Below are positions 12,950-43,046 of a stretch of 43,188 nucleotides of DNA, in pieces. Under the pieces are notes generated by a model. The model saw only the letters and a list, made by a program, of their open reading frames with translations. It did not search any database and had not been told where the DNA came from. The DNA is from a virus, in IMG/VR virus record IMGVR_UViG_3300031772_000075; one strand, 5' to 3'. The position numbers and the translations under genes are program-made. Every line of letters starts with the position of its first letter. The stretch's first letter is position 1.

Positions 12950-12982
12950 CATTTCCGACGGTACTCGCTGTACGGTCGCCCA

Positions 12983-17859: not shown

Positions 17860-18027
17860 ATGACTTACGACGAGTTTTCAGACAAACTGGACAAGATGAC
17901 CGCCGAGTTCCGCCGGGTGAACGGCAGGGACATGACCACGCTCGCGGAGCTGAAGGCCTTTCTCGACCGGCGCCTGACGAAGCCGAAGAAGCGGGGTGCT
18001 AGAAGTTTGAAGGGCCTGTTCGGGTGA
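17860..18027 (+). CDS. small hypothetical protein (55 aa; MTYDEFSDKLDKMTAEFRRVNGRDM...)
   Basis: ATG at 17860 after an AT-rich 57-bp divergent spacer. The TGA overlaps the start of the J-domain gene (GTGATG). Below the 60-aa cut-off of the ORF track. Confidence 0.35.
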   Translation: MTYDEFSDKLDKMTAEFRRVNGRDMTTLAELKAFLDRRLTKPKKRGARSLKGLFG

Positions 18028-18353
18028 TGGACCTATGTGAAGCCTGGCGCCTTTTCGGCCGCGACCTACCCTCCATCGTGGCCGACGCCCGGGCCCGGAA
18101 GAGGGATCAGAGGATGCCCTTCTTGGACGGCCTACTGGAGGAGGCAAAGAAGACCAGGAAGGCTCTGCTTGCCAAGCACCACCCGGACCGGGGTGGGGAC
18201 CCCTCGCAGTTCAAGCGGGTCGAGGACGCCTTCCAGGCCATTGAGAAGGGGACCGAGGAGGCCAGACAGGGCTTCCGGGAGGCCGACGAGAAGCGGGTGG
18301 CGGACCGGGAGAGCAAGCGCTCAGTCTTCATTGACGTGGACCCGCTAAAGTGA
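18024..18353 (+). CDS. J-domain-only protein
   Basis: KALLAKHHPDRGGDPSQFKRVEDAFQAIE is a J-domain helix II-III with HPD. No Zn-finger or C-terminal domains. Confidence 0.65.
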   Translation: MMDLCEAWRLFGRDLPSIVADARARKRDQRMPFLDGLLEEAKKTRKALLAKHHPDRGGDPSQFKRVEDAFQAIEKGTEEARQGFREADEKRVADRESKRSVFIDVDPLK

Positions 18354-19123: not shown

Positions 19124-19187
19124 CGTAGCTCGGTCGGCGCCCGGCGTAACCTCCGCCATGGGCATTGCGCTCAAGGAGGCGAAGAGG

Positions 19188-20288
19188 ATGTACTCGGCCG
19201 TGAACTCTGAGAATAACGCAATTCATCACTTCTTGAACGTCTTTCGTGAGGCCGTCAACAAGAAGAGTGTGAATGCATCTCTAAACCTGGCATACCTACG
19301 TTCGGGGATACTCCAGTTTGTCGAGTATCAGGCTGAAGGCGGACAGAAGATGATGCTCCCTTACAGGGAGGCGTCATCTTCCTTGGAGCGCGCTCGACTG
19401 TTCGAAATCAGCCATGATGAATACCGTGAAATGCATGTGGCCATCCATGAGTCCCTAGGCCTTGCAGGGGAACAGCCTGGAGATGAAGAACTCGGCCGGT
19501 ATCAACCTGCGGTAGAAGATCTCATTTCTAAAGTCCCCTTTCCACCTCGTCTCCCGTTTCCGCATATCTATATTGGAATATCCAGTCCGGTAGTTCTGGA
19601 CGGGCGCATCCTGCTTTGCGGGTTCTTGCTGGGTCAGCACGGCCAGGCGTGGGAGCTCAGCATAGACTCTTCGAGGGAAGTTCCGATCGTAATGCCTCTC
19701 ACGACGGCTTGCTCCACATATCCGACCGCTCAGGACAAGAGTGTGGGCATTTGGAGGTCGAGGATAGCCGGTCAGTACTCGCCTGCCGCTTTCCTCATGT
19801 ATGAGATAGTGCAGGCAATCATCGGATTCCAAAATCTTAAGATTGAGGTTCCGGACCTCCTCACTAAGCTTTTGGCGAAGAAAAACCGAGTGCCGGGCTT
19901 CCCGAAGGTCGTTCCACCGCCTTTTTACCGTATTCCCCTTACAAATCAGATAGAACGAGTCAAACTTCAGATCCAGCGTCGAGAGATTTCGAAAGGTTCC
20001 TCTTTCTCATACGTTCATGACGTGTGTGGTCATTGGATGACGAGAATCGTTAAAGGCACGACGCCCATCGATCCCAAGTTGTTCAAAAGACTCGTGAAGC
20101 GTGAATACCTGATCTGGATGGACAGATCCAAAATGCCGAAAGAGTATCACGATCTGCTCTCGAAGCGTGGTGTTTATGCGAACTCAGACGAATGGGTCGC
20201 CATTCTTCGTTCTTGGAGAACGGACTTCAAGCGCCCGAAGAACCGTCCGGATCTCCCTTACGTTCCCGCGACGAGAGTTATGGAGTGA
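19188..20288 (+). CDS. hypothetical protein (366 aa) in a lower-GC island
   Basis: ATG with AAGGAGG 9 nt upstream. G+C drops visibly (about 50% by eye) exactly over this gene and returns to high G+C at both ends. No confident domain; weak PD-(D/E)xK-like hints only. Confidence 0.55.
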   Translation: MYSAVNSENNAIHHFLNVFREAVNKKSVNASLNLAYLRSGILQFVEYQAEGGQKMMLPYREASSSLERARLFEISHDEYREMHVAIHESLGLAGEQPGDEELGRYQPAVEDLISKVPFPPRLPFPHIYIGISSPVVLDGRILLCGFLLGQHGQAWELSIDSSREVPIVMPLTTACSTYPTAQDKSVGIWRSRIAGQYSPAAFLMYEIVQAIIGFQNLKIEVPDLLTKLLAKKNRVPGFPKVVPPPFYRIPLTNQIERVKLQIQRREISKGSSFSYVHDVCGHWMTRIVKGTTPIDPKLFKRLVKREYLIWMDRSKMPKEYHDLLSKRGVYANSDEWVAILRSWRTDFKRPKNRPDLPYVPATRVME

Positions 20289-20322
20289 GCCCCGAATAGG
20301 CTTCCTGTCCGTACGGTCTGGT

Positions 20323-20757
20323 ATGGCGGACAACAACCCGATGCATCCCGGACTTCCTCCCTGCCCTCAGCCGTTCGACGACGGCAGCGACTGCGGGTGT
20401 CACACCATCGAGGACATGTCGGTCGACGTGAACCCCGAAAAGAACTGCTGCACGAAGTGCACGGGGGACACGGAGTGCAACATCTGGTTCACGCTCCGCG
20501 CCCCCGGTTTCCCCGGCCGCTGCATCCTGGACGAGCTGACGTACGACCAGGTCTACGACGTCCTGCTTCGAAACCCGAACGCGGCCCGGGACCTTCAGAG
20601 AATCACGAACGACCCGAAGCTCCTGTCGCTCGCGCGCGAGGTCAAGCTCATCGCCCCCGACCAGCAGGACGCTGAGGCGGCGGCCAAGCGCCTCAACGCC
20701 AACAGCCTTCCGTTCTACACCGTCCTCCGGGGAAACTCGGACGGGACCGTCCGATAG
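20323..20757 (+). CDS. Cys-rich hypothetical protein (144 aa)
   Basis: ATG (MADNNPMH...). CPQPFDDGSDCGCH...NCCTKCTGDTECN cysteine cluster. The tabulated start at 20167 runs through the 3' end of the preceding gene. Confidence 0.45.
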   Translation: MADNNPMHPGLPPCPQPFDDGSDCGCHTIEDMSVDVNPEKNCCTKCTGDTECNIWFTLRAPGFPGRCILDELTYDQVYDVLLRNPNAARDLQRITNDPKLLSLAREVKLIAPDQQDAEAAAKRLNANSLPFYTVLRGNSDGTVR

Positions 20758-20780
20758 AGCTTTTCTCGTCGAACGGACAC

Positions 20781-21602
20781 ATGGAGCCCGACAAGCTTTC
20801 CCTTTGCCTCAAGCGCCTGGCGTCCTTCCTGGACCACGGTGCCGTGACCAGGGAGGCGGCGGTCTCCGCCATCAACGGCCTCATCCTCGCCACGGACAAG
20901 TCTCTCGCCCTCGCGGTGAGGGAAGCACTCCATGCCGAGATAGAGAAGCTCATGCCCGGGAAGTTTGAGCTGTACGACACCAACCCGGACGGCAAGGGGT
21001 GGAGGGCCGGCTATATCTCCTTCGGCCTCGGCCCGTCGCAGTGGAAGGACGAGGGAATCATCGGCGGAGTCCTGATTCAGGCCGACTATAACCCGAAGCT
21101 CTTCCGCTCCGAGGCGCCGGAGCCCGCGGACCCGAAGTTCCAGCACTCCCAGGGCGGCGGGATCCTGGAGCTCACGGTAACGGGATGCTATTACAACAAG
21201 CTCCAGGGCGGCGGGTGTGACTCGGACACGGCCGTGGGCGTCGTCGGCCTCAGCGGCGCCGATGTCTACGTCGACGTCGACGAGAGCGTCTTCCAGACCG
21301 ACATCGTCGACCCCGGGATGACGGTGGCCGGACTGGACAAGATCATCCGGGAAATTTCGTCCAACCCTCCGGACTATGCGCAGTCCGAAGGGCGCAAGAG
21401 GAAGAGCCGGGCTCCGACGGGCAGCCCCCAGTCGCTCATGGCGTGGCTCATTCAGCAAAAGCGGTCGGACGTCGGACAGTCCGAGATCGACGCCCTTGCG
21501 AACGCCCAGTCGGCGAAGTCCGGCAAGGCCGTCGGGAACGCGAAGAAGGACATAGCGGACTTCTTCCGAAGCCGGCAGTGGCCCATCAACCCGAACGCCT
21601 AG
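20781..21602 (+). CDS. hypothetical protein (273 aa)
   Basis: Balanced protein-like composition. The opposite-strand 336-aa ORF (20715-21725) is R/L/G/V-rich antisense and was rejected. Confidence 0.55.
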   Translation: MEPDKLSLCLKRLASFLDHGAVTREAAVSAINGLILATDKSLALAVREALHAEIEKLMPGKFELYDTNPDGKGWRAGYISFGLGPSQWKDEGIIGGVLIQADYNPKLFRSEAPEPADPKFQHSQGGGILELTVTGCYYNKLQGGGCDSDTAVGVVGLSGADVYVDVDESVFQTDIVDPGMTVAGLDKIIREISSNPPDYAQSEGRKRKSRAPTGSPQSLMAWLIQQKRSDVGQSEIDALANAQSAKSGKAVGNAKKDIADFFRSRQWPINPNA

Positions 21603-21901
21603 CTCTGGGAGACTAGCTCGACCAGCAGCGTGTTCGGAAGGTCCTTGATGGCCTTCTGCACTACCTCTCGCTCCTCGCCGAACACGTACCAGACCTTCGG
21701 AAGACCGTCCTCGCCGACCTTGCACACGGCCTTCCTGCCGCCACCGGCGGTGACCTGGCGCACGGTGAACTCGGCCTCCTCTCTGTAGCCCTTCAGCGGC
21801 TTCAGGAGGGCCGTGATCTCAAGGGTCACCTTGTCACTGACAGGACAGCTCCATATCACGGTCCTTCTACTGTCGGGAGCCCGGGATTTACGCCCCGGCA
21901 C
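21599..21901 (-). CDS. possible small protein (about 100 aa) downstream of MazG
   Basis: The C-terminal 85 aa are protein-like. A GTG start 2 nt after the MazG stop is preceded by AGGT. The N-terminal part of the tabulated ORF (to 22057) overlaps MazG in another frame and was rejected. Confidence 0.3.
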   Translation of the reverse strand: MPGRKSRAPDSRRTVIWSCPVSDKVTLEITALLKPLKGYREEAEFTVRQVTAGGGRKAVCKVGEDGLPKVWYVFGEEREVVQKAIKDLPNTLLVELVSQS

Positions 21902-21902
21902 T

Positions 21903-22403
21903 TTACCTGAGGGGCTTCCCGTAGTATCCGTCCCGGGCTCGTTGAATGACGACCTCAACTTTGTCGTTGACGAGCTTGGACAGGTTGATGTCAAGGACGT
22001 GGGCGAGCACGTGCGAGTACACGATGACGTCCGGAAGCTCCGACTTGACGGCCTCAAGGACCCTGGCCTGGTCCTCGCCGTTCCGGCGGGCCTTCACGAT
22101 GGCGTTCGCCATCTCGCCGGCCTCCCCGCATATGCCGAGGGTGTAGTACATGGCGGGGTCGTTCCCGTAGGCGTCCTTCTCACCCATCCGCTTGGACTCG
22201 CAGATGGCCTTGTGTGAGCGGATGATCGATGCGGACAGGTCTTCGTCGGCGTCTTCGAGAGAGTCCAGAAGCTCCTTCATCCGGCGGTCGACGTCGTCCT
22301 CCAGCCTGGACATGAGGAGGGTGCTGTGGAAGGCTTCGCGGACCTTCTGCAGCTCGTCGATGCGGGCCCGGATCTCGCTCTTCGTCTCGACAAGGCCGTT
22401 CAT
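21903..22403 (-). CDS. mazG: MazG-like nucleoside-triphosphate pyrophosphohydrolase
   Basis: YYTLGICGEAGEMANAIVKARRNGEDQARVLEAVKSELPDVIVYSHVLAHVLDINLSKLVNDKV is a typical all-alpha MazG core (EVGEL.E...EElGDvL.y...la..lgid). The ATG overlaps the upstream HD gene's stop (ATGA). The tabulated 306-aa ORF N-terminal extension was rejected. Confidence 0.7.
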   Translation of the reverse strand: MNGLVETKSEIRARIDELQKVREAFHSTLLMSRLEDDVDRRMKELLDSLEDADEDLSASIIRSHKAICESKRMGEKDAYGNDPAMYYTLGICGEAGEMANAIVKARRNGEDQARVLEAVKSELPDVIVYSHVLAHVLDINLSKLVNDKVEVVIQRARDGYYGKPLR

Positions 22404-23053
22404 ACCGTGAACCTCTGGGCGAACCCCTCCGCCATGTGCCCGTACAGCGAGGCCAGGGAGGGCCGGTGATCGAAGTTCCTCGGTTTTGTGCCTGCGGCTT
22501 CGTTGAGCTTCTTCGCCATACTCTTCAGGTCCTCGATCATGCGGCCGAAGAACGGGTCGATCTCGGAGTTCCCGCGCTTCTTCTCCCGCCACATGTACTG
22601 GTATAGGGACATGAAGTCGGCGGCCTTCACCACGTCCTTGGCATAGTCGCCCTTCCAATGGTGCGTGTGGCCGAACGACGTGATGTGAAGGTGAACCTCG
22701 TCGAGGAGTGAGCGGACTTCGACCGGGAGGGAGGACGCTAGGCCTTGCTCTGCTTTGTTCACGGCCGCCCGGAACTCCTCGGACGAGTATTTGAAGGTGC
22801 GGACGATGTCTCCGGAGAGGCACTCTAGTGCGTCGTGCGTGAGCGCGTGCTGCATGATGAGCGCGTCCAGCTCCTTCGGCCCGACCAGCTTCCGGTGGAT
22901 CATCATGCTGTAGACCGACACCCAGTACATGTGCGTCGAGTCGTTCTCCGGCACCGTCACCGGGATGCTGCTATAGCGGGTTACATAGTCGAGCCGCCTT
23001 ATGTCACTTGAGGCGGCCTCCAGCAGTGGCTTCCAGTCGAGGATCTTCTCCAT
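22400..23053 (-). CDS. HD-domain 5'-deoxynucleotidase (YfbR-like)
   Basis: ENDSTHMYWVSVYSMMIH aligns with YfbR ENVSEHSLQVAMVAHALA. ALIMQHALTHDALECLSGD aligns with LLAMYHDASEVLTGD. KDVVKAAD aligns with KSLVKQAD. Confidence 0.7.
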   Translation of the reverse strand: MEKILDWKPLLEAASSDIRRLDYVTRYSSIPVTVPENDSTHMYWVSVYSMMIHRKLVGPKELDALIMQHALTHDALECLSGDIVRTFKYSSEEFRAAVNKAEQGLASSLPVEVRSLLDEVHLHITSFGHTHHWKGDYAKDVVKAADFMSLYQYMWREKKRGNSEIDPFFGRMIEDLKSMAKKLNEAAGTKPRNFDHRPSLASLYGHMAEGFAQRFTV

Positions 23054-23237
23054 CCTCCGAGAGTACAGCGGCTGCGTCCACCTGCTCCGGCGTCAGGTCG
23101 TTGATGGTGACTGACGCCCCCCGGGCCGCGAACTCGCCGAGGAGCTGCTCGGCCTCGGGCCTTGTCATCATCGCGTGACGGACGACCGTGTCGCCCTCGT
23201 CGTCGACGTACTCGATGGAGTGGAACCTCTTGCTCAC
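23004..23237 (-). CDS. possible small protein (77 aa), GTGA-coupled to the pcp-like gene
   Basis: A GTG start overlaps the pcp stop. The tail is protein-like (VSKRFHSIEYVDDEGDTVVRHAMMTRPEAEQLLGEF...). The remainder of the tabulated 267-aa ORF is an R/P/G-rich artefact. Confidence 0.3.
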   Translation of the reverse strand: MSKRFHSIEYVDDEGDTVVRHAMMTRPEAEQLLGEFAARGASVTINDLTPEQVDAAAVLSEDGEDPRLEATAGGRLK

Positions 23238-23881
23238 CGTGCACCGTGCTGGGACCGGTACCACTGGGAGACCTGCCCGACGAGGGCCACCGAAGCCTCG
23301 ACGATGCCGGAGAACGAGGCGGTCGACCAAAGCTCGTCCTCGATGACGCCGAAGTCGTTTGGAAACGCGACGTGTATGAAGCCGGCGGCCACGAAGTGAG
23401 GCTGGGGGACGGTCGCCAGATGGTGCAGGACTCCGTACATGAGGGAGTTGCAGACGTGGGTTCCGGCCGAATAGGAAAGCTTGCTGGACACGCCCATTTC
23501 GTTCAGCCTTTCCACGAGGCTGGCGGCCGGGATGGTGGGCTCGTACGCTGGAGGGCCTCCTCGCACGGCGGGCCTGTCCTGGACGGGGATTCGGCTGTTG
23601 TCGCCCATCGGGGAGCGCTCGACGTTGATCGCGAACCGCTCTACCCTCAGGGGGTCGTTCTTCTGAGTGGCTCCGAACATGAGGACGGCGTTCGGCTGAA
23701 AGGCCCCCATCTCCGTGACGAGGATCTCGGTGCTCTTGCCATAGAGCTGAGGGAGGACCAGGCCGCGGACCTCGACTCCCGGGACGGAGACCGCCCCCTC
23801 GTGCCACAGCTTGGCCAGGTCGCCGCTCGGCGAGCGCCTAATCCCCCAGATTGGCTCGAAGCCGGTCAGGACGACCTTCAC
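23234..23881 (-). CDS. pcp: pyroglutamyl-peptidase I (pyrrolidone-carboxylate peptidase, C15)
   Basis: VKVVLTGFEPIW...ERFAINVERSPMGDNSRIPVQDRPAVRGGPPAYEPTIP...SYSAGTHVCNSLMYGVLHH matches Pcp throughout (MKVLVTGFEPF...ERVAIN.DDARIPDNEG..P.D.PI...GPAAYFSTLP...SNTAGTFVCNHLFYG.MH). GTG start with AGGA upstream. The tabulated N-terminal 108 aa were rejected. Confidence 0.8.
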   Translation of the reverse strand: MKVVLTGFEPIWGIRRSPSGDLAKLWHEGAVSVPGVEVRGLVLPQLYGKSTEILVTEMGAFQPNAVLMFGATQKNDPLRVERFAINVERSPMGDNSRIPVQDRPAVRGGPPAYEPTIPAASLVERLNEMGVSSKLSYSAGTHVCNSLMYGVLHHLATVPQPHFVAAGFIHVAFPNDFGVIEDELWSTASFSGIVEASVALVGQVSQWYRSQHGAR

Positions 23882-23923
23882 TCCGATCCTGTACCATAGG
23901 AGTTTGATGGGAGCGTTCTTTCG

Positions 23924-24262
23924 ATGGAGCCTACTGTCCTGTCCGAACACCTCAAGAAGCTGGCCGGCCTCATCGACCGGTCTGAGGCTCCGAGCGCGAA
24001 GGCCGTTCAGGCCGAGCTGGAGCACGTCGTCGCGTCCCTCGAAGGGCGGCAGGCGGCGAAGCTCAACAAGTTCATGGACAAGGACTTCGAGGGCGCCCTC
24101 GACGGGCTCGACAACCTCATCAAGAAGCTCGACAAGACTTCCCGGACCCTGAACCCCCAGGACGAGGGGAAGGCCGAGATCGAGGAGTCGCTGACGGTGC
24201 TCCATCAGCTCCGCAACAGCGTCAAGAGCACGGTCGACGGACTTGAGTCCGTGAACGTTTAG
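23924..24262 (+). CDS. hypothetical coiled-coil protein (112 aa)
   Basis: ATG. K/E/D-rich, heptad-like composition. Divergent from pcp. Confidence 0.5.
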   Translation: MEPTVLSEHLKKLAGLIDRSEAPSAKAVQAELEHVVASLEGRQAAKLNKFMDKDFEGALDGLDNLIKKLDKTSRTLNPQDEGKAEIEESLTVLHQLRNSVKSTVDGLESVNV

Positions 24263-24675
24263 GGCTTTTTCCAGGTCCTCTTGAAGACCTCGACGAGGTC
24301 CTCCCGGGGATTGGCCTTCGCCGCTTCAAGCTTTTCCATCAGCTCCGGGAGGTCGAGCCCGACAAGCTCTGCCGACGCCCGGAGGGCGGCCATCGTCTTC
24401 TCCGGGTCGTCTCCCGGCTGGGAGAGCGCCTGAACGGCGGCCATCGCCGTCCTGGACCGCCATGTCTCCTCTTCCGAGAGCTTGAAGGCCTCCGCCGTCC
24501 CGTCGTGACGGACTCCCAGCCAGAACCCTTCTGCGACCTCGACCTGAGAGCACGGCTTGACGAACATGTCGTTCAGGTACTCGCCCGTGCGCGTGAAGGC
24601 GCCCTCGAACGCTTCCACGTAGTGCGGGACGCACGGCGGGACAAGGTTGGACGGACCCCAGGCTCGTACTCTCAT
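24259..24675 (-). CDS. hypothetical protein (138 aa)
   Basis: Protein-like composition. 4-nt convergent overlap with the preceding gene. Confidence 0.5.
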   Translation of the reverse strand: MRVRAWGPSNLVPPCVPHYVEAFEGAFTRTGEYLNDMFVKPCSQVEVAEGFWLGVRHDGTAEAFKLSEEETWRSRTAMAAVQALSQPGDDPEKTMAALRASAELVGLDLPELMEKLEAAKANPREDLVEVFKRTWKKP

Positions 24676-24684
24676 GCGCTCAAC

Positions 24685-25020
24685 TTACGATCGGATGAGG
24701 CGGAGGACCCCTGTCGGAGTCGGGCCTGAAACCCCAGCGGCGAGACCTGAATAGGTTCCCGTCGGGGTAGGCTGCTCCTCCGGAGGATGGGACCCGGAGG
24801 GCACTCCGAACATCGTCATGAAGATCTTCTTCCCCGTCGGGGACGGGATGGCCTCATAGACCTGCTTCGCGAAATCCGGGTCCGTCCGGCAGCGGTGGGC
24901 TCTTTTCGCCCAGACGCGGCCTCTGTTCGGCGCGTTGAGGCACTCTCCGCACACTCCGTCGTCCAGCTGGCGGGGCCTGTCACACCCTTCACATCTTCCG
25001 ATGCACGAAATCTTGCTCAT
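24685..25020 (-). CDS. small zinc-ribbon protein (111 aa)
   Basis: CIGRCEGC...CGEC Cys cluster near the N-terminus. Confidence 0.4.
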   Translation of the reverse strand: MSKISCIGRCEGCDRPRQLDDGVCGECLNAPNRGRVWAKRAHRCRTDPDFAKQVYEAIPSPTGKKIFMTMFGVPSGSHPPEEQPTPTGTYSGLAAGVSGPTPTGVLRLIRS

Positions 25021-25055
25021 GTCCGTCCGTACACGGTACGGCCGCTGATTTACGG

Positions 25056-25505
25056 TCAGTTCGCGGCGTGATGAAGCTGCACGGGCGCCTTCCGCCGCGC
25101 CTTCCGCCCGCCCTGCTTACGCTTCACGGCAGTGTAGGCGACGTTCTCCGGCTGGAAGTGCCTCTCCAACGTGGCCCTTGCCTTCGCCTCGTCGAACGAC
25201 TTGCAGCTGAACACGTCCATGGAGAAGTGGCGCCGGAGGGGCCACACGTGGACGGAGATGTGGCTCGTCCCGATCATGCAAATCCCGGAGATTCCGCCCT
25301 CGTCCTGGAAGACGTCGCCCGTGAGCTTTTTCGGCTCAAGCTTCACCTTCTTGAACAGCGGACCGAAGATCAGCTGCATGTCGAGGACCTTCACCAGGTC
25401 GAGCATCAGGGTCGTGAGCCCTGCCTTGGAAAATGCTGCTTCGATCCTTCGCTCCGGGACTTGTCCGTCGGCGATGAGGTGAAGTCCGTCGATCACATTG
25501 GCCAT
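25056..25505 (-). CDS. speD: S-adenosylmethionine decarboxylase proenzyme (small pyruvoyl-dependent SpeD/SpeH type)
   Basis: GISGICMIGTSHISVHVWPLRRHFSMDVFSCKSF matches the processing-site region of the small bacterial/archaeal type (..V.ESHL.IHTWPE.GYAA.DVFTCG). About 150 aa, as expected for this type. Confidence 0.7.
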   Translation of the reverse strand: MANVIDGLHLIADGQVPERRIEAAFSKAGLTTLMLDLVKVLDMQLIFGPLFKKVKLEPKKLTGDVFQDEGGISGICMIGTSHISVHVWPLRRHFSMDVFSCKSFDEAKARATLERHFQPENVAYTAVKRKQGGRKARRKAPVQLHHAAN

Positions 25506-25551
25506 TTCTTCTTGAACCTCGCAGGGAAAACAGTGACCCGCAATAAAGAGA

Positions 25552-25860
25552 CTACTTGATCATCTCAAGCGAGAGAGTGTCCGGGGAGAGCGTGAGGTCC
25601 TCATGGCCCTTCTGAGCCTCAGCGTCCTCCGAGCAGTACCAGACCCCGTTCACCATCTTCAGCGGCCCGGATCCAAACCTCAAGCCTCGCGTCGGCGACA
25701 TTCCGACCCACTTGGCAACTTTGGGCAGGAAAAGAGCCTGAACGTCCTTGAAGTCCGCGATGCTCATCTTGGACCCAGGGTCTCCGAGGTCCTGGACGGT
25801 CATAAGCACAAGCTGACCATCGCCAACGGCGCTCCAGTCAAAGCTCTCGAACGACCTCAC
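25552..25860 (-). CDS. hypothetical protein (102 aa)
   Basis: ORF with protein-like composition, divergent from the Dps-like gene. Confidence 0.4.
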   Translation of the reverse strand: MRSFESFDWSAVGDGQLVLMTVQDLGDPGSKMSIADFKDVQALFLPKVAKWVGMSPTRGLRFGSGPLKMVNGVWYCSEDAEAQKGHEDLTLSPDTLSLEMIK

Positions 25861-25908
25861 GTTGCGACGTTACACCCCGGTGGGGCTTTTGTCGGACCTC
25901 CTTGGCGC

Positions 25909-26409
25909 ATGGCTAGGAACGATTATATCCTGAGGGTCGCATCCCGGATCGCAAACGTGCCCGCCCGGGAAGGCCAGTTCGCGGCCCCGGACGGCCAGGT
26001 CGTCGCCCACCTTCAGAAGTTCCTGAACGCCAAGTACGCCATCGACATCGCGTACCGGAGCTTCGCCGACCGCGTGAAGGGACCGTGGAGGGACGCCCTC
26101 GTCTCCCACTGGCAGGAGCACGCCAAGGAGGAGAGGGACAGCGCCTACGACCTGGCGATGAAGCTCGTCGGGCTCGGGGCCGATCCTATCCAGACGGCCG
26201 TCCAGGTGCCCGCGTGCCCGGCCAACGTCTTCGCGTTCTGCAAGGCCCTCATAGAGCTTGAGCTCAAGGCCATCGAGAACTCCAGGAGGCTTATCGTCCT
26301 CGCGGGCGACAACACTGCCATGAAGGTCCTCGCCGAGAACGTCATCCTCGTCGACACCCAGCATCTCGACGACCTTCGGCGCATGTGCTTGGAGACGGCC
26401 GGATTATGA
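25909..26409 (+). CDS. Dps/ferritin-like four-helix-bundle protein
   Basis: HLQKFLNAKYAIDIAYRSFADRVKGPWRDALVSHWQEHAKEERDSAYDLAMKLVGLGADP and ELKAIENSRRLIVLAGDNTAMKVLAENVI resemble Dps helices A-B and D. ATG at 25909; the tabulated 25603 start overlaps the opposite gene and was rejected. Confidence 0.55.
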   Translation: MARNDYILRVASRIANVPAREGQFAAPDGQVVAHLQKFLNAKYAIDIAYRSFADRVKGPWRDALVSHWQEHAKEERDSAYDLAMKLVGLGADPIQTAVQVPACPANVFAFCKALIELELKAIENSRRLIVLAGDNTAMKVLAENVILVDTQHLDDLRRMCLETAGL

Positions 26410-26966
26410 GCGAGTGCGTCGGCTGCTCGCTTGATCAGGTGACGAAGGACACGCTGAAGGAGTTCCCGAAGTTCAGGGTGGTCCCGAAGTCGGAGTCGTT
26501 CACCATGAAGGCGATCAACGTCTTCCTGATCGCCGTGTCGTTCGGCCGGATGAAGAGCTTCATGACCGGCTTCGCCACGACCCTCGGGACGACGGTCTAC
26601 GTGACCCCGGGATGGCCGACGAAGCCCGACGCGGACAAGGCAGTCCTCCTCCGCCATGAGCGCGTCCACATGCGCCAGGCCAGGAGGCTCACGCGCCCGC
26701 TGTTCTCGCTCCTCTACCTCCTCCTGTTCCTCCCCGGCGGCCTCGCCTGGTTCCGGGCGCGCTTCGAGATGGAGGCGTACGAGGAGACGATCCGGGCGAC
26801 TTTCGAGCACTACGGGCGCACGGCGGTGTTCGACAAGGGGTTCCGTGACAGGATCGCCAAGAACTTCACGGGGCCGGCATATCTGTACATGTGGCCGTTC
26901 CCGAAGACGGTGGACAAGTGGATACTCGACGCCGTCGAGCGGATCGCAGGGAAGGAAACTCCATGA
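26406..26966 (+). CDS. HExxH-motif membrane protein (putative zinc metallopeptidase-like)
   Basis: The ATG overlaps the Dps stop (ATGA). LLRHERVHMRQ is an HExxH motif, followed by a hydrophobic helix (LFSLLYLLLFLPGGLAWF) and EMEAYEE. Confidence 0.45.
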   Translation: MSECVGCSLDQVTKDTLKEFPKFRVVPKSESFTMKAINVFLIAVSFGRMKSFMTGFATTLGTTVYVTPGWPTKPDADKAVLLRHERVHMRQARRLTRPLFSLLYLLLFLPGGLAWFRARFEMEAYEETIRATFEHYGRTAVFDKGFRDRIAKNFTGPAYLYMWPFPKTVDKWILDAVERIAGKETP

Positions 26967-27589
26967 AGACGATGAAGACACTGCTTTGCCTCCTGGCCGC
27001 CCTCGCGGTCCTCTTGGCCCCCGTGGTCGTGCTCGCTCAGCCCGCGCCGGCGCAGAAATGCGAAGGCCCTGCAGAGCTCTGCGCCCAAATCCTTGACCTC
27101 AAGGGCAAGCTCGACGCTCAGAAGGCCCTGACGGACCAGAAGGGCGCCGAGAAGGACACGGCGAAGGCCGAGACCACGACGACGGTCCTCAAGACGGAGA
27201 AGAGGGACGCTGAGGGCGTGGCGAAGATGCTCGCCTTCGCGGCGATCCTCGCCATCGCCCTCAAGACGCTCGTGTCCGTCTTGAAGTCTTGGAAGGGGTT
27301 CTTCACCACCGACAAGCAGAAGGCATGGCTCAAGATCTCCATGCTGGTCGTCGGCCTCCTCGCGTTCCTCGCGTCGAACATCGGCTTCGGGATACCGTGG
27401 TGGCAGTCGGTCATCCTGGCTGGCGGAGGCCCCGGCGCCATCATGGTTCACGAGCTGACGAAGCTCATCCCCGTCCTCATGGGGAAGGCCAAGTACACGT
27501 CGGAGTCCGAGAAGCCGCCGCCGATGCCTGCGGACGAGGAGAAGCCCGAGCCGAAGCCCGCTGACGAGCCGAAGCCGCCGGCCGCCTAA
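26963..27589 (+). CDS. secreted/membrane protein with signal peptide and two predicted TM helices
   Basis: MKTMKTLLCLLAALAVLLAPVVVLAQPAPA is signal-peptide-like. AAGGAAAC RBS; ATGA overlap with the previous gene. Two TM helices and a Pro/Glu/Lys-rich tail. Confidence 0.5.
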   Translation: MKTMKTLLCLLAALAVLLAPVVVLAQPAPAQKCEGPAELCAQILDLKGKLDAQKALTDQKGAEKDTAKAETTTTVLKTEKRDAEGVAKMLAFAAILAIALKTLVSVLKSWKGFFTTDKQKAWLKISMLVVGLLAFLASNIGFGIPWWQSVILAGGGPGAIMVHELTKLIPVLMGKAKYTSESEKPPPMPADEEKPEPKPADEPKPPAA

Positions 27590-31163: not shown

Positions 31164-32072
31164 TCAATCTATCAGACTCCCGTAGCTACCGACCATCTTC
31201 GGCCTGTCCTCGTTCGCGCCGCTCGCCATTGCCGCCGGGCTCTGTCCGACCTTCTCCAGGTACTGCTGGAGCTTCAGCTCCATCCCGAGGTTGTTCGGGC
31301 AGTGCTTCGCGGCGCGGAGCCCCTGGTCGAGGATCCAGGCCCGGCTCTCCGGGTCGAAGTCCTCGCGGGCCCAGAAGCAATTGGCCGTCTCGTAGATGTG
31401 CTTCTTATACTTCGGGTCGCCGTCGAGCGTGACCTTGAGGTCCATCCGCTCCTTGCCCTCCTGGCGGGCCTCGACAAAGCACCCCTCCAGGCGGTTATAC
31501 TGCTTGGCCGAGAGCTTGTAGAGCAGGATCTCCGTGTAGAGGCGCTGCTTGATCATGTCCATGTTCGGCTGCATGTGCTCGCCGACCGGGTACTTCATGA
31601 CGATGGTGACCGTGCGCTGCTCGGCGTCGCCCATGTCGTCGCAGCACTTGCCGGCCTCGACGAGGGTTGAGCCCTTGTAGACGCCCATGCAGCGCATCGT
31701 GCCGACGCCGTCCTTGAAGTGGGTGAAGCCCATCCAGAACTTCGGCATCGTGGTGTCGAGGCGGTCGATCTCCTTGAGGTCCTTGACCTCCTTGCTGAGC
31801 CTCTCCGCCAGCTTCTTGTCGATGTTGGCGAGGATCTCCAGCTTCTCCTGGTCGGTGAAGAGCGCGAGCGAGAGCGGCTTCTTCGCCTTCTCCTCGTCCG
31901 TGAAGTTACCCCAGCGCTCCTGGGCCTTCTTGGTGAGGATTCCGTCCGAGTACTTCTTGAACGCGATCAGCGAGATTCGCGCCTTGCCGTTCTTTTCGAG
32001 CTTGAACTCGTCGATGCCCGAGTTCTTGATGACCTTCCCGTCGTCGAAGCCAAACTCCATTACGTCGCTCAT
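31164..32072 (-). CDS. hypothetical protein (302 aa)
   Basis: ATG (MSDVMEF...) with GGAGA 7 nt upstream. The tabulated start 10 codons upstream contains that SD and was rejected. Ends ...MVGSYGSLID. Confidence 0.5.
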   Translation of the reverse strand: MSDVMEFGFDDGKVIKNSGIDEFKLEKNGKARISLIAFKKYSDGILTKKAQERWGNFTDEEKAKKPLSLALFTDQEKLEILANIDKKLAERLSKEVKDLKEIDRLDTTMPKFWMGFTHFKDGVGTMRCMGVYKGSTLVEAGKCCDDMGDAEQRTVTIVMKYPVGEHMQPNMDMIKQRLYTEILLYKLSAKQYNRLEGCFVEARQEGKERMDLKVTLDGDPKYKKHIYETANCFWAREDFDPESRAWILDQGLRAAKHCPNNLGMELKLQQYLEKVGQSPAAMASGANEDRPKMVGSYGSLID

Positions 32073-32225
32073 GTGGTCTCTCCTTGTTTGTTTGCCGGCC
32101 AAGGCCGGCGCGTCTACTGCTTGTTTGCCCGCCGAGGCGAGCGCGTCGGAGCCCCCGGTTGCCCGGGTGTTCCTTGAAAGACACTACATTCAAGGGCTAC
32201 GGCCTGCGCTCAGTCTCGAACAGGG

Positions 32226-33203
32226 CTAGTCGATGAGGTCCTGATATGAGACCGTCTTGGCCTGCGGGACGTTCGGCTCGGGCTCTGGAGGGCTCTCGGG
32301 CTCGCCTCCCTCCATCCGGGTGTCCGCTCCGCCGTGCCCGTTCTTGCAGAACGGTCCGGACGGTGAAAAGGACTGCTGACTATCGCAGTCCGAGCACATG
32401 CCCCTGTGCCCCTTGGAGCAGACGAGGGGCATGTTCGGGTTGAGCTTGACCTCCTCGTCGCACGTCCCGCACGTCCATGTCGGGTAGCGGGTCGGGTGCT
32501 GTGTCAAGAACGCGGACATCATCTTCGCGTGCTCGCTGTCCATCGGCTCTGGCATGTCGTCAGGCCGTTTCTTCGGGTCGAGGAGGTCCTGTGGCTCCAC
32601 CCTCGGGATCACGGGGGCTGGCATCCCGTCCGCCACCAGCTTTTTCTGGTTGGACTGCGGGCGCTGATATCCGTCGCCACCCATCATCTGGGACTCTTTG
32701 TCGTCCTTGATGAGGACGCGCTGCATGCGGATGTCGTTCGACGTCTGCTTCAGCTGGTCGTACTTGGACCGAATGAGCTTGACGGTCTCCTCCACGTCGA
32801 GGAGCTCAACCTTCAGGGCGCTGACAGCCTTGTGCTCCTCGCCGAGCATCGTCGCGGCGACGGACTCGCGGTCGCGGACGGACGGCTGCTTTCGCACGAC
32901 CACGTCGTCGGCGAGGAGCTCCTTCATCTTGAACTCCAGGTCGAGATCCCGGTGACGAAGGTCGAGCCGGATCTTCTTCTCGTGAAGCTTGACGATCTGG
33001 AGGTAGTACTGGACCCTGTTCTGGTAGGCCCGGCAGCGCGAGATGATCTTCTGGAGGTAGGCCGTGCCCAGGTGGGGCAGAGTCGGGTCCTCCTCCAGGT
33101 TCACCTCGTACAGGGCCATCTCCTCGATGATCTGTTCGAGCTGCTCCTTGGTGAGAGTCACCCCAGCGGTCGCGACCGGGTTCCCAACGTGCGTAGAGTC
33201 CAT
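32226..33203 (-). CDS. hypothetical coiled-coil protein with C-terminal Cys/His-rich zinc-finger-like cluster (325 aa)
   Basis: N-terminal heptad-like region. WTCGTCDEEV...CSKGHRGMCSDCD...CKNGH. Ends ...KTVSYQDLID. Confidence 0.5.
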   Translation of the reverse strand: MDSTHVGNPVATAGVTLTKEQLEQIIEEMALYEVNLEEDPTLPHLGTAYLQKIISRCRAYQNRVQYYLQIVKLHEKKIRLDLRHRDLDLEFKMKELLADDVVVRKQPSVRDRESVAATMLGEEHKAVSALKVELLDVEETVKLIRSKYDQLKQTSNDIRMQRVLIKDDKESQMMGGDGYQRPQSNQKKLVADGMPAPVIPRVEPQDLLDPKKRPDDMPEPMDSEHAKMMSAFLTQHPTRYPTWTCGTCDEEVKLNPNMPLVCSKGHRGMCSDCDSQQSFSPSGPFCKNGHGGADTRMEGGEPESPPEPEPNVPQAKTVSYQDLID

Positions 33204-37031: not shown

Positions 37032-38132
37032 TCACACGGCCTCCGGAAGGTACTCGGAGAGGGTACGTCCGACCATGCGGCCACGGAGCTTCTTGAGAGC
37101 CTTCTCCTCTATCTGCCGGATTCTCTCACGGGACAGGTCGTAGCGGTCAGCGACCTCCTGGAGCGTCAGCTGGCCCGTGTCGTCGATTCCGAACCTGTGC
37201 CGGATGACGCGGGACTCGAACGGGTTGAGGCCTGAGAGGAGCGAGAGCAGCTCGTCGTTGGCCTCCGCCGAGAACAGGCTGTCGAGCGGGCTCGGGAACG
37301 TCTCCGACGTGAGCGTGTCCAGGAGGCAGAATCCCTCCTCCTCACCTGCCGGGGCGTCGAGGTGAAGGACCCTCTGCCGGCTCAGGAGCGCGGTCAGGAC
37401 CTTCTCGACGCTGATCTTGGCCGCCTTCGCCATCTGGTCCGGGTCCATGCCCGTCCCGTTCTCCGCCATGTGCCCGCCGTCCAGGCGCGAGAGCTTTTGG
37501 GCGAGCTCGCTCATGTGGACGGGGATGCGTATCGGGCCCTCCTTGTCCGAGACGGCCCGCTTGACGTGATGCCGAATCCACCAGACGGCGTACGTCCCGA
37601 ACCGGAACCCGCGGTCGACGTCGAACCGGTCGACCGCCCGCATGAGCCCGATGTTCCCCTCCTGAATAAGGTCGCCCAGGGTCTGGTGATGGCAAAGCCT
37701 GGCGTACTTCTTCACGATCGTGACGGTGAGGCGAAGGTTCGCCGTCACAAACTCGTTCTTGATGCGCTCTCGCCTGGCGTTCAGGCCTCCGACGCGACGG
37801 TCCTTAGACCCGACCGCGGCCGTCAGGCACTCCTGAAACCAGGTCCGGCCGGAGTCCGTGAGCCGGACGAACCGGACGACGTCCCTGTGAAGCCCGGACT
37901 TGTTGAACAGCCTGGCGGGAAGGTGAACCTCGTCCTCCTTCCCTGCGGCGGCCCTCAGGCTTGACTCGCTGGCCTTGTCCTTCAGGAAGGCCGCCACCAT
38001 GTCCGACTCGACGGTCATGAGCTTTCGGAACGTCGCCGTCTCCTCCTCGAAGGTCGGGACGGAGACCTCAGACATGCTGGAGAAGTACTTCGTAAGCGCG
38101 TTCCCGGGAGCGGTTTTCGCGTTCGAGGACAT
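37032..38132 (-). CDS. RpoD/RpoS-like sigma-70 family sigma factor (regions 1.2/2/3/4)
   Basis: ANLRLTVTIVKKYARLCHHQTLGDLIQEGNIGLMRAVDRFDVDRGFRFGTYAVWWIRHHVKRAV is near-identical in pattern to the RpoD region 2 consensus. Region 4.2 is LTLQEVADRYDLSRERIRQIEEKALKKLR. ATG preceded by AGGTGG. Confidence 0.85.
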   Translation of the reverse strand: MSSNAKTAPGNALTKYFSSMSEVSVPTFEEETATFRKLMTVESDMVAAFLKDKASESSLRAAAGKEDEVHLPARLFNKSGLHRDVVRFVRLTDSGRTWFQECLTAAVGSKDRRVGGLNARRERIKNEFVTANLRLTVTIVKKYARLCHHQTLGDLIQEGNIGLMRAVDRFDVDRGFRFGTYAVWWIRHHVKRAVSDKEGPIRIPVHMSELAQKLSRLDGGHMAENGTGMDPDQMAKAAKISVEKVLTALLSRQRVLHLDAPAGEEEGFCLLDTLTSETFPSPLDSLFSAEANDELLSLLSGLNPFESRVIRHRFGIDDTGQLTLQEVADRYDLSRERIRQIEEKALKKLRGRMVGRTLSEYLPEAV

Positions 38133-40978: not shown

Positions 40979-41479
40979 CTAGAGCCAGGTCAGGGCTATG
41001 GCGTTACAGACGACGTGGAAGCAGTTGTCGGCAATGATCATGAGCCAGACGGCCATCCACGGAGGCTTGCTGGAGTCATAGCCCGTCGCGGAGCACTCGG
41101 ACCAGGGCGCGTTCCGGATCCAGCCGGCGTTCTTGCCGGCCTCCGGGTGCCCCTCCGGGTGGAGGACCTCGATGTACCGCGGGGCGAGGAAGTTCTTCGC
41201 CCAGCAGACATAGCGGGCCAGGCGCCAGCGGTCGATGGCGAAGTGCGTGGACAGAATGACGAGCAGCGCGAGCCACTTCACTGAGGACGGTAGCCACGTC
41301 GAGGGGCTCCACCCTAAGCTCGTCCAGGTGCAGGCGAACGGAATGAAACAGAGCGTGTACGACGCGGCGTGGGCGAGCGCGGCGAGTGAAGACTTGGTCT
41401 TGTGCGACGCCATGTAGTCGGATTGAACTACATAGTCACCGAATGCATGCGCAAGGAGCTGATCCGCGGTCACGAACAT
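40979..41479 (-). CDS. hydrophobic hypothetical protein (166 aa), probable membrane protein
   Basis: Trp/aromatic-rich with several hydrophobic segments; ATG start. Confidence 0.45.
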   Translation of the reverse strand: MFVTADQLLAHAFGDYVVQSDYMASHKTKSSLAALAHAASYTLCFIPFACTWTSLGWSPSTWLPSSVKWLALLVILSTHFAIDRWRLARYVCWAKNFLAPRYIEVLHPEGHPEAGKNAGWIRNAPWSECSATGYDSSKPPWMAVWLMIIADNCFHVVCNAIALTWL

Positions 41480-41516: not shown

Positions 41517-41936
41517 TCAGTAGCGGTTCCCGGAGTCGCGACGGGAGCCCTTGCCTCTTCCACCACCGCCGCCGCCAGCGGTGGGATTGTCGTACACGCG
41601 GGGGCGGCTGTCACCGCCTCCGGCGTCGGTGCTGTACCCGCCGCTGGCGCGGTACCCGCCACCACCACCACCACCGCCACTGCGCGCAGGCCGGTCCTCC
41701 GCCTCGTTGACACGGAGGTTCCGGCCGGCGAGGGCATACCCGTTCAGCTCCTGGATGGCCTTCTTGGCGTCGGCCTCCGTGGACATGGTGACGAAGCCGA
41801 ACCCGCGGCCCTGGCCCGTCTCACGGTCGGTCATGACCTTGGCGTCGGTGACCGGGCCGACCTGTTCGAAGGCCTGCTTGAGGTCCTCGGTGCTGAGCTG
41901 ATACGAGAGGTTTCCGACGTAAAGACGATTGCCCAT
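41517..41936 (-). CDS. RRM-type glycine-rich RNA-binding protein
   Basis: RNP-2 LYVGNL and RNP-1 RGFGFVTM at canonical spacing. Gly-rich C-terminal tail (GGGGGGGGYRASGGY...GGGGGGRG). GAGGA 6 nt upstream of the ATG. Confidence 0.85.
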   Translation of the reverse strand: MGNRLYVGNLSYQLSTEDLKQAFEQVGPVTDAKVMTDRETGQGRGFGFVTMSTEADAKKAIQELNGYALAGRNLRVNEAEDRPARSGGGGGGGGYRASGGYSTDAGGGDSRPRVYDNPTAGGGGGGRGKGSRRDSGNRY

Positions 41937-41937
41937 T

Positions 41938-42333
41938 TCATTCCTCGTTACCTACGGCCGTCTGGCCGTAGCTTTTTGCGAGGCGCTCCTTTAGCGCCCC
42001 CATCTCTTTCGCCAGGGACTCCCTCTGGGATTCCGTTAGCGCAAGCCTTCTGTGCACTCGAAGCTCCTCCAGGAGCTCCGTCCCGCGCTGCTGAAGCTCG
42101 CCGACCTGGCGAAGCCGGTGGGCGTCGTCGTCAAGGAGCCTCTGCATCGTCTTTTTCGCGACGAGGAGGAGTCCGCCGCCGCTCGACGTGGTGAGGAACT
42201 CGTTGAGCTCCTCCGGGAGCCCGTTCGGGCCCTCTACCACGATCTTGAATGGCTTGCCGCGCCACACGCCCTCGCGTGAGAAAGAAACTTGTTCGTCCTG
42301 ATCCGTCACCGAGATCCTGATCGCGTCCTTCAT
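41938..42333 (-). CDS. hypothetical protein (131 aa)
   Basis: The ATG overlaps the stop of the upstream low-GC gene (ATGA). Its stop lies 1 nt before the RRM gene's ATG. Confidence 0.5.
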   Translation of the reverse strand: MKDAIRISVTDQDEQVSFSREGVWRGKPFKIVVEGPNGLPEELNEFLTTSSGGGLLLVAKKTMQRLLDDDAHRLRQVGELQQRGTELLEELRVHRRLALTESQRESLAKEMGALKERLAKSYGQTAVGNEE

Positions 42334-43046
42334 GTCCCGATTTTACAGTCTGTCAGGTTCTTGGGATTTACATTTGCGACTGCTTTACAGAACCCGAGGA
42401 GCTCGGAGTCGCTGAAATTTGATCGGGCCACGTTCGCCATGAACGTTACAAACCTTACATTTCCCTTGAGATACCCAACTGCATGATCCATTCGGTCCAA
42501 GCTCGCATTACACGGGTTCCGGACTGCCCATCCGATAGCACCGTCCGGGAGAACCATTCCCAAGGATGAAAGAGCGCAAAGACCTCTCTGACTTTCCCAC
42601 AACAGTTTTAGAAATGGTAGGTCTAAGTCGGTTTCCCCCTTGTGATGTCGTTGCCGAGCTCTTGTCAAAAACCAACGAAATTGAGAGTATTCATCCTTCA
42701 CTCCACCCCGATTCAGCTGGTCAGCCTTCGGCGGGGTCCGTCGGTTCCTATCCCTTAGGTGACAGGCCGTCGAACAAAAGAAATGGGAACGACCCCTCTT
42801 TTGCCACCTATCTACTTCCCGCTTTTCTTTGGGAAAAGGGTTCTGGCACAGGTGACACTCTAATTGGATCAGAGAACGAGACCCTGAGTAGGTTTCCCCG
42901 TACCTCTCAGCATTGGTCGTTTTCACCTGACACGAGGTCGAACAGAAGAACCTAGTCACTCCTCTTCGAAGCTGTCGTTCGTGCTCTTTCCTCGGTTTGG
43001 GAAATGGTTTTTGACATGTCGGACAGTTCAGTTCCACCCAGTTCAT
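42330..43046 (-). CDS. double zinc-ribbon protein with C-terminal HNH-like (HNH_3-type) endonuclease domain, in a lower-GC island
   Basis: Two repeated modules: NCPTCQKPFPK...FFCSTSC and ECHLCQNPFPK...FFCSTAC. The C-terminus SLDRMDHAVGYLKGNVRFVTFMANVARSNFSDSE resembles the H..N..N core of phage HNH_3 endonucleases. GC is visibly lower (about 50% by eye). Confidence 0.55.
   Translation of the reverse strand: MNWVELNCPTCQKPFPKPRKEHERQLRRGVTRFFCSTSCQVKTTNAERYGETYSGSRSLIQLECHLCQNPFPKEKREVDRWQKRGRSHFFCSTACHLRDRNRRTPPKADQLNRGGVKDEYSQFRWFLTRARQRHHKGETDLDLPFLKLLWESQRGLCALSSLGMVLPDGAIGWAVRNPCNASLDRMDHAVGYLKGNVRFVTFMANVARSNFSDSELLGFCKAVANVNPKNLTDCKIGT

Follow-up and report, generated by a model that had tools for sequence, protein, structure and literature searches.

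Why does a viral contig carry a gene for a protein with a canonical RNA-recognition motif (RRM) and a glycine-rich tail, where did the gene come from, and what could its product do during infection? The question is raised by positions 41,517 to 41,936 of IMG/VR virus record IMGVR_UViG_3300031772_000075, a stretch of 43,188 nucleotides that is one whole assembled contig and is called the window below. The gene lies in a locus that is kept in position across a lineage of very large phages, directly behind a small gene that we call the partner, and its nearest cellular relatives are bacterial. With a probability of roughly 0.6, the product is a phage-encoded binder or chaperone of single-stranded RNA (ssRNA) that acts post-transcriptionally, probably together with the partner protein.

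The RRM protein and its predicted fold

The gene and its parts are as follows.

41517..41936, minus strand: gene of the 139-aa glycine-rich RRM protein, stop included (ATG start; Pfam, NCBIfam, dN/dS, synteny)
41685..41936, minus strand: RRM domain, residues 1–84, acidic, pI 5.0 (structure model, Foldseek, composition)
41907..41924, minus strand: RNP-2 hexamer LYVGNL, residues 5–10 (direct sequence reading)
41784..41807, minus strand: RNP-1 octamer RGFGFVTM, residues 44–51 (direct sequence reading)
41517..41684, minus strand: disordered basic Gly/Arg/Tyr tail, residues 85–139 and the stop (low model confidence, below 50)

The match of the 139-aa protein to Pfam PF00076 (RRM_1) spans profile positions 1–70 of 70 at E = 4e-24, with 84.7 bits against a cutoff of 20.7, and a match by chance is excluded. 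RNP-2 and RNP-1 are 33 residues apart, a normal spacing for an RRM (about 30–35). In an alignment of 36 sequences, G8 and N9 of RNP-2 are invariant and the other four positions are conserved to at least 90%, with Y6 nearly invariant; in RNP-1, R44, G45, F46, F48 and T50 are invariant. The AlphaFold2 (AF2) model, built on 36 homologs, displays the order beta-alpha-beta-beta-alpha-beta (b1 4–8, a1 16–24, b2 29–36, b3 43–51, a2 54–64, b4 75–78) at a predicted local distance difference test score (pLDDT) of 85–90; residues 85–139 fall below 50, i.e. they are disordered. Foldseek with this model gave 906 PDB matches at E ≤ 0.001, and all 50 of the matches listed contain an RRM. The root-mean-square deviation (rmsd) is about 1 Å to crystal and cryo-EM RRM structures, 1.1 Å to CIRBP 5tbx, and about 1–2 Å in superpositions on CIRBP, TIA-1, HuR, plant GR-RBP1 and the bacterial RNA-binding protein (RBP) 7JLY. 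An earlier note on this DNA, made from the letters alone, had read a canonical RRM from LYVGNL and RGFGFVTM; the profile score well above threshold, the normal distance between the motifs, the AF2 fold and the Foldseek matches all bear this out.

The 55 residues of the tail include 22 Gly (40%), 8 Arg and 4 Tyr, and have a pI of 10.5. No strict RGG triplet was found in residues 85–139. The tail had been described as long, poly-Gly and RGG-like: it is indeed Gly-rich, and RGG-like applies only in a loose sense. Tails of the phage clade have in common RPxVY[DN][NQ] and an Arg-rich, aromatic C-terminal end, and KEPRRGRRDD is also specific to the clade. An exact look-up of the 139-aa protein found no record.

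Selection on the gene

Codon-position GC (GC3) and the codon pattern of the RRM gene fit those of the neighbouring genes. The ratio of nonsynonymous to synonymous change (dN/dS) was computed over the 84-codon RRM domain between the window and related contigs, which carry L numbers here. It is 0.051 for L001, 0.013 for L002 and 0.055 for L003, at dS of 0.31–0.48, and 0.21–0.34 for more distant family members. The domain is 97–99% identical in protein sequence to those of L001 and L002, whose neighbouring proteins are 45–87% identical. The RRM gene is functional and under strong purifying selection. Open reading frames (ORFs) on the opposite strand overlap it; these were discounted because of the homology and the dN/dS of 0.01–0.06 in the RRM frame.

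A fixed locus with a partner gene

The gene order HNH, small helical protein (the partner), RRM, (DUF3307), dual-specificity (DSP) phosphatase, sigma-70 and AAA_28 is found again in over 15 independent contigs, which come from JGI, ENA, Logan, NCBI and IMG/VR. The locus is conserved in the metagenomic contigs L001–L007, L088–L091 and L135–L137. It is also syntenic in the IMG/VR viral contigs L092 (393 kb), L098 and L099 (184 and 308 kb), L100 (132 kb) and L110 (63 kb). In these, the order persists at only 30–62% identity between the neighbouring proteins and those of the window. The features around the RRM gene are given below.

41938..42333, minus strand: partner gene, lineage-specific protein of about 125 aa with an invariant LQQRGTEL motif (hidden Markov model (HMM), synteny)
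41942..41946, minus strand: Shine-Dalgarno-like GAGGA, 5 nt before the RRM ATG and within the last codons of the partner ORF (sequence reading)
42330..43046, minus strand: upstream HNH / endonuclease VII-like gene, first in the same-strand block (phrog_3322, E = 1.4e-16; phrog_1035)
40979..41479, minus strand: downstream DUF3307 membrane-protein gene, 37 nt past the RRM stop (Pfam DUF3307; phrog_6676, E = 7e-34)
37032..38132, minus strand: complete sigma-70 gene, regions 2, 3 and 4 (Pfam)

In 16 sources (the window, L001–L007, L088–L092 and L135–L137), the partner HMM has its match immediately before the RRM gene, and because of this recurrence the two genes constitute a conserved two-gene cassette. 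In the most distant relatives, L098–L100 and L110, the HMM detected no partner. The stop of the partner lies 1 nt before the RRM ATG in the window, and across the family the two genes are separated by 1–7 nt or overlap. Relatives of the partner begin with MTDQD, and the true start in the window may be the GTG at 42309. Its homologs number 21 in 5.8 billion proteins, and 0 are annotated. The AF2 model of the partner, an N-terminal beta-hairpin followed by two long helices, is mediocre (pLDDT 65, predicted template modelling score 0.29). No match was obtained in Pfam, PHROG, NCBIfam or PADLOC, and Foldseek gave nothing at E ≤ 0.001.

The surroundings of the cassette are kept as well. The AGGA core of the Shine-Dalgarno-like site is conserved in relatives. 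The HNH gene likewise precedes the cassette in L135, L092, L006 and L088, and a DUF3307 gene of the same orientation follows, next to the RRM gene or no more than about 0.6 kb away, in L001–L004, L100, L110 and L135. A complete sigma-70 gene near the cassette is kept in all relatives. What had not been described before is this fixed locus in a huge-phage lineage, held under strong selection and joined by a lineage-specific partner gene.

Hairpins upstream of the RRM start

Two hairpins were located within the last 65 nt of the partner ORF, 16–64 nt upstream of the RRM start.

41980..42000, minus strand: hairpin 1, 8 bp, mRNA sense (conserved pairing)
41952..41971, minus strand: hairpin 2, 8 bp, mRNA sense, 16 nt upstream of the RRM start (conserved pairing)

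The pairing is kept in 96 of 96 cells over six close relatives, with compensatory double changes at three pairs; one position of hairpin 2 varies among C-G, G-C, A-U and G-U in the six. None of 500 shuffles reached the observed pairing, and slid controls pair at 34–47%. In L089 and L092, which are more distant, neither hairpin is evident, and an Rfam search around the RRM gene matched no family. They could be a cis-regulatory site for translation control, processing or autoregulation; the evidence, which comes from within a coding sequence and from a small sample of six relatives, is suggestive. Hairpin 2 was also flagged as a terminator-like signal on the plus strand and was rejected as such, the T-run not being conserved. 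That signal, on the wrong strand, was the single terminator-like hairpin of the promoter and terminator scan near the gene, which also gave one promoter-like site, located within the ORF; the two are at chance level.

The element that carries the gene

Pfam and PHROG scans covered all plausible genes of the window, with the following assignments beyond the complete sigma-70 gene.

Replication and recombination: DnaB-like helicase, primase zinc ribbon, family-A DNA polymerase (PolA; phrog_17, E = 3.5e-105), dCTP deaminase, UvsX-like RecA, RuvC-like resolvase, SbcC-like ATPase, HNH/endonuclease VII
Transcription: 15641..16435, plus strand, weak sigma-70 region-2 match (Pfam)
Chaperone and metabolic: full DnaJ, NUDIX, CN-hydrolase, HD/YfbR, pyroglutamyl peptidase, AdoMet decarboxylase, ferritin-like protein
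Other: AAA_28, DSP phosphatase, DUF3307, 907-aa protein with a major-vault-protein (MVP) shoulder domain

Genes with PHROG matches lie to either side of the RRM gene. No cellular housekeeping genes or tRNA were found in the window. Megablast of 23 kb of the window against 50,697 GenBank phages gave no match, and the best phage match of PolA, at 34% identity, is in a 485-kb uncultured phage. In L001 and L135, genes just past the position of the window's right end encode collagen-repeat and Laminin_G_3 tail-fibre-like proteins and PTH2. Family members reside on contigs of 141 and 273 kb, with an overall reach of 141–393 kb. The window is very probably a fragment of a huge or jumbo phage of an undescribed lineage. 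The description of the element as phage-like thus holds up, through its PHROG replication and recombination genes, the syntenic IMG/VR viral contigs and the tail-fibre-like genes in relatives.

Occurrence of RRM genes in viruses

With tblastn, relatives of the RRM were found in 3 of 50,697 GenBank phage records, namely the Microcystis jumbo phage MaAM05 and two contigs of 'Acinetobacter phage MD-2021a', and in 211 of 72,556 plasmid records. The RRM protein has no matching family in PHROG. In IMG/VR, a single-protein scan gave nothing; an alignment-based, pattern-limited scan gave 43 viral contigs with RRM relatives (L092–L134). These contigs are strikingly long, with a median of 81 kb; 21 of them reach 100 kb or more and 10 reach 200 kb or more. 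Synteny with the window element is seen in only 5 of the 43, and the viral status of the others was spot-checked only. The RRM genes of these other contigs look like independent acquisitions, as if large phages had picked up such genes repeatedly, and RRM genes may be enriched in huge phages generally. The earlier note had called the RRM rare in viruses of prokaryotes; this is true of isolates, with three records and no PHROG, and does not extend to metagenomic huge-phage contigs, in which it recurs. On one of these, L097 (297 kb, IMG/VR), a Ro/TROVE-type RNA-binding protein (12776..14497; phrog_850, E = 9e-82) lies about 2.5 kb from the RRM gene, and the two may make up another RNA-handling module on an unrelated huge-phage contig.

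A comparative review of 224 jumbo phages names the RRM only as a fold, in polymerase palm domains and RegA (PMC7824862), and a 2026 jumbo-phage review does not mention a classical RRM_1 protein (PMC13282480). Full-text literature searches found no report of a phage RRM_1 protein and nothing relevant on RRM proteins in myxobacteria.

Origin of the gene

Homologs of the RRM protein number in the thousands in the protein database. After the phage clade, the nearest are bacterial proteins with a single RRM, the frame 'MGNRLYVGNLS...RVNEAE[ED]R' and a Gly-rich tail. The identities to the window protein are as follows.

P0022 (metagenomic), in a cellular context beside DbpA, MscS and ADH genes: 70%
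GTDB species genomes of Polyangiaceae and other Myxococcota, among the matches listed: 58–64%
Eukaryotic proteins with two RRMs: 53–56%
Cyanobacterial plasmid copies: 51–54%

Among the GTDB matches listed, the best hits are overwhelmingly Polyangiaceae, Polyangiales, Myxococcales and metagenome-assembled genomes labelled 'delta proteobacterium', and the next groups are Planctomycetota and Acidobacteriota. NCBIfam NF058537, a bacterial 'RNA-binding regulator' model, is passed marginally (101.3 bits against a cutoff of 100), and eukaryotic multi-RRM subfamily models score far under their own cutoffs. In a neighbour-joining (NJ) tree, the core window clade has 99% bootstrap, and all context-verified phage sequences nest among Myxococcota, apart from the eukaryotic RRMs.

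The bacterial family model, the closest bacterial relatives and the topology of the tree together indicate, at the level of sequence relationships, a gene that is bacterial in type and not eukaryote-like. The earlier framing of the gene as a eukaryote-like host-manipulation candidate is therefore not sustained: NF058537 is passed, and identity is 58–70% to Myxococcota versus 53–56% to eukaryotes. The comparison with bacterial and eukaryotic glycine-rich RBPs that had been proposed likewise places the phage clade with Myxococcota, at weak deep support. A donor or host in the Myxococcota is plausible, at about even odds, and not established.

Comparison with known systems

The closest counterparts are the bacterial RRM-1 proteins (NF058537; Bacteroides RbpA/B/C, Porphyromonas gingivalis 7JLY, Myxococcota homologs), which have the same single N-terminal RRM with canonical RNP-2 and RNP-1, the same size of about 100–140 aa, and a short tail that is rich in Gly and Arg and has an aromatic residue at its end. 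The P. gingivalis RBP (PDB 7JLY) is 52% identical to the window protein. The window protein differs in being encoded by a phage and not by a chromosome, in having a phage-specific partner gene upstream, and in a tail with RPxVY[DN][NQ] and a Lys/Arg-rich end. Cyanobacterial Rbp and the plant and animal glycine-rich RBPs (GR-RBP, CIRBP) share the architecture of an RRM with a Gly-rich tail, and the fold matches at about 1–2 Å rmsd for CIRBP 5tbx, tobacco GR-RBP1 4c7q and barley 2mpu. However, identity to the eukaryotic (53–56%) and cyanobacterial plasmid (51–54%) proteins is lower, and, set against the RGG/YGG repeats by which class IVa GR-RBP and CIRBP are defined, the tail of the window protein is 40% Gly with Tyr and Arg and has no RGG triplet.

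Phage proteins that bind mRNA are known from elsewhere. RegA of T4 is not known to have the classical RNP-1 and RNP-2 motifs, and the fold of ChmC differs from that of the RRM protein. Neither has a sequence relationship to the RRM protein, which has no PHROG match. They are functional analogies: RegA, with its RRM-like fold (PMC7824862), and ChmC of nucleus-forming jumbo phages (cited in PMC13282480) are phage-encoded post-transcriptional mRNA binders. No chimallivirus hallmark was seen in the window. The Microcystis phage MaAM05 (274 kb) has RRM_1 matches in two places, at 46.8% identity, and resembles the IMG/VR huge-phage contigs in that RRM_1 genes are borne on a large phage genome.

Proposed role and alternative explanations

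In studied RRMs, the aromatics of RNP-1 and RNP-2, on beta3 and beta1, stack on the bases of single-stranded nucleic acid, and Gly/Arg-rich tails raise affinity and promote annealing or self-association. We propose that a bacterial-type single-RRM protein was captured long ago from a bacterial host, most likely a Polyangiaceae-type myxobacterium, by a lineage of very large phages and has been kept since. The gene would be expressed from the same-strand block of HNH, partner, RRM and DUF3307, with translation coupled to that of the helical partner. The four-stranded sheet would expose Y6, F46 and F48 for stacking on ssRNA bases, and the basic, disordered Gly/Arg/Tyr tail would give extra non-specific affinity for RNA and probably promote RNA annealing or self-association. 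During infection, the protein would be an RNA chaperone or regulator that takes effect post-transcriptionally, its targets being transcripts of the phage or of the host. In this account, RNA binding, its targets and timing, an interaction with the partner protein and the taxa of donor and host are inferred. Cellular RRM-1 proteins, e.g. Bacteroides RbpB and cyanobacterial Rbp, serve as comparison systems for the role. RbpB binds more than 170 RNAs, prefers single-stranded regions and works with small RNAs (PMC11697453), and the Bacteroides RRM-1 proteins are redundant cold-shock-type RNA binders that feed back on their own expression (PMC13370968).

Several points weigh on the other side of this proposal. 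It is position only that suggests a functional link between the partner and the RRM protein, and the partner has no detectable fold or family. RRM domains can bind ssDNA or proteins too. As to the carrier, Pfam and PHROG scans found no capsid, terminase or tail genes in the 43-kb window, and the PHROG tail-fibre scores in relatives are partly driven by collagen repeats. As to the donor, the GTDB identity ranking spans the matches listed and is not exhaustive; the deeper nodes of the NJ tree have less than 40% bootstrap, so that a Myxococcota origin rests mainly on the identity ranking and the topology. DnaJ supplies no independent host signal, since its cellular matches belong to unrelated phyla and do not exceed 37% identity.

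Alternatively, the phage copy could simply top up the host's pool of RRM cold-shock proteins and RNA chaperones, without phage-specific targets or a partner, and so keep translation and RNA folding running, e.g. at low soil temperature. The identity of 58–70% to cellular Myxococcota RRM proteins (in GTDB, among the matches listed), with the same Gly-rich tail, agrees with this explanation, as does the redundancy of cellular RRM-1 proteins as cold-adaptation factors (PMC13370968). The contig also has other genes of auxiliary appearance, for DnaJ, AdoMet decarboxylase, a ferritin-like protein and NUDIX. However, the locus is fixed across relatives whose neighbouring proteins are only 30–62% identical, a partner specific to the phage lineage precedes the RRM gene in the 16 sources, and the tail motifs RPxVY[DN][NQ] and KEPRRGRRDD of the phage clade are lacking in cellular relatives. 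A core accessory function fits the fixed locus, the partner and the tail motifs better than a sporadic moron does, and we regard the auxiliary explanation as unlikely.

Could the RRM protein instead bind ssDNA in replication or recombination, as a surrogate single-stranded-DNA-binding protein (SSB)? None is recognisable in the 43-kb contig despite its DnaB, primase, PolA, UvsX-like, RuvC-like and SbcC-like genes, some RRMs bind ssDNA, and PDB 2ki2, 'Ss-DNA binding protein 12RNP2', matches at E = 4e-14. Yet the RRM gene is about 10 kb away from the recombination genes, in a block with the sigma factor, phosphatase and membrane-protein genes, and its closest characterised relatives bind RNA. In addition, the full genome is much larger than the contig, and an SSB may be encoded elsewhere in it; the 312-aa protein beside UvsX (31164..32102) is itself an SSB candidate. 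The surrogate function is very unlikely.

An association with the ribosome, by which the protein would bias translation to phage messages in the manner of chloroplast cS22/PSRP2, is highly improbable. cS22/PSRP2 rank with the best PDB matches in both sequence (E = 4e-29 and 1.2e-28) and fold (5mmj_v at 1.1 Å rmsd), and relatives of the element carry IF3, RtcB and PTH2. However, cS22 has two RRMs, from which its high score partly results, the translation genes are absent from the window and do not adjoin the RRM gene in relatives, and ribosome assembly in Bacteroides was unaffected by loss of its RRM proteins (PMC13370968). Finally, the idea that the gene is not a phage gene, being host DNA misassembled onto phage DNA or part of a cellular contig, draws on the closeness of the protein to cellular homologs and the lack of a structural gene in the window, and is effectively refuted by synteny: the same order occurs in more than 15 independent contigs from five sources (JGI, ENA, Logan, NCBI, IMG/VR). 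GC3 and the codon pattern also match those of the neighbours, and PHROG-matching genes stand on both flanks. A defence-system reading has no support either, PADLOC having returned nothing for the RRM gene or its neighbours.

The proposal of a post-transcriptional ssRNA binder can be carried further, into more doubtful territory. The partner and the RRM protein may form a dedicated two-protein module of an uncharacterised huge-phage lineage, possibly one that infects Myxococcota, in which a ribonucleoprotein assembly or condensate handles mRNAs. Oligomerisation or localisation of the RRM-Gly/Arg protein would be the task of the helical partner, the assembly would capture, protect or sort phage (or host) mRNAs, and the two hairpins upstream of the RRM start would be a candidate binding site for autoregulation.

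Other genes on the element and its relatives

The earlier note had listed an H1-like protein, a dual-specificity phosphatase, MVP and two J-domain proteins beside the RRM gene. MVP (shoulder domain, 86.9 bits), one full DnaJ and the phosphatase (DSPc, 36 bits against a cutoff of 33.5) are corroborated; the second J-domain protein and the H1-like protein go back to motifs recognised by eye, without a match in Pfam or NCBIfam. These genes and others on the element are listed here.

3478..6201, plus strand: 907-aa protein with the MVP shoulder domain (86.9 bits) and a Vault_3 repeat (29.5 bits), unusual for a phage contig; no match in PHROG, NCBIfam or PADLOC
8643..9713, minus strand: full-length DnaJ with J, CXXCXGXG and C-terminal domains, 48–100% identical in the phage clade and at most 37% to cellular proteins
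18024..18353, plus strand: 109-aa ORF with an HHPDRGGD motif seen by eye; no Pfam or NCBIfam match
16796..17527, minus strand: 243-aa protein with a long Ala/Lys/Pro-rich tract (AKPAAKKPAAKGKPAAKASAKAKP...) that recalls the tails of histone H1 or bacterial Hc1/AlgP; no Pfam or NCBIfam match
6259..6723, plus strand: weak similarity to the DarG macro domain (PADLOC E = 1.2e-7; NCBIfam 24.7 bits against a cutoff of 250)
18350..27589: metabolic and auxiliary cluster of CN-hydrolase, HD/YfbR-like 5'-nucleotidase, pyroglutamyl peptidase C15, AdoMet decarboxylase and ferritin-like protein
2742..3290: NUDIX gene
31164..32102 and 32226..33203, both minus strand: conserved proteins of no assigned family, adjoining the UvsX-like and RuvC-like genes

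The product of 6259..6723 is a possible ADP-ribosyl glycohydrolase for counter-defence against DarT-type systems. The proteins of 31164..32102 and 32226..33203 are 44% and 55% identical to their counterparts in L098/L099, and the second is 84% identical in L001. Neither matches Pfam, PHROG or NCBIfam, and the first has no match among PDB sequences; its 312-aa product could be the missing SSB. GC content dips to 0.54–0.55, against about 0.63 for the contig, at 19158..20288 and 42001..43000. The former is a 376-aa ORF without an assigned function, and the latter spans the HNH/endonuclease VII gene, in keeping with a mobile endonuclease of the homing type. In relatives, the translation- and RNA-repair-type genes IF3, RtcB and PTH2 lie near the cassette (L088 1..7300 and 14088..15299; L001 3668..4012; L135 6147..6485), and TnpB (OrfB_IS605) and a Band_7 protein are encoded as well.

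Significance

The classical RRM is the main mRNA-handling domain of eukaryotes, and bacterial RRM proteins have been recognised only recently as global RNA-binding regulators. The label 'eukaryote-like' is tempting for a gene of this kind, and the present case corrects it, the source here being bacterial. If the partner and the RRM protein do form a module that handles mRNAs, no RRM regulator with canonical RNP-1 and RNP-2 would have been described from a virus of prokaryotes before this RRM protein, and the module would be a bacterial-virus analogue of eukaryotic hnRNP-type mRNA handling. The pair consists of small, easily expressed proteins and can be employed to study RNA management in large phages. 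The fixed locus, the purifying selection and the exclusive partner suggest that this phage lineage may operate a layer of post-transcriptional control of its own, using a borrowed type of host protein.

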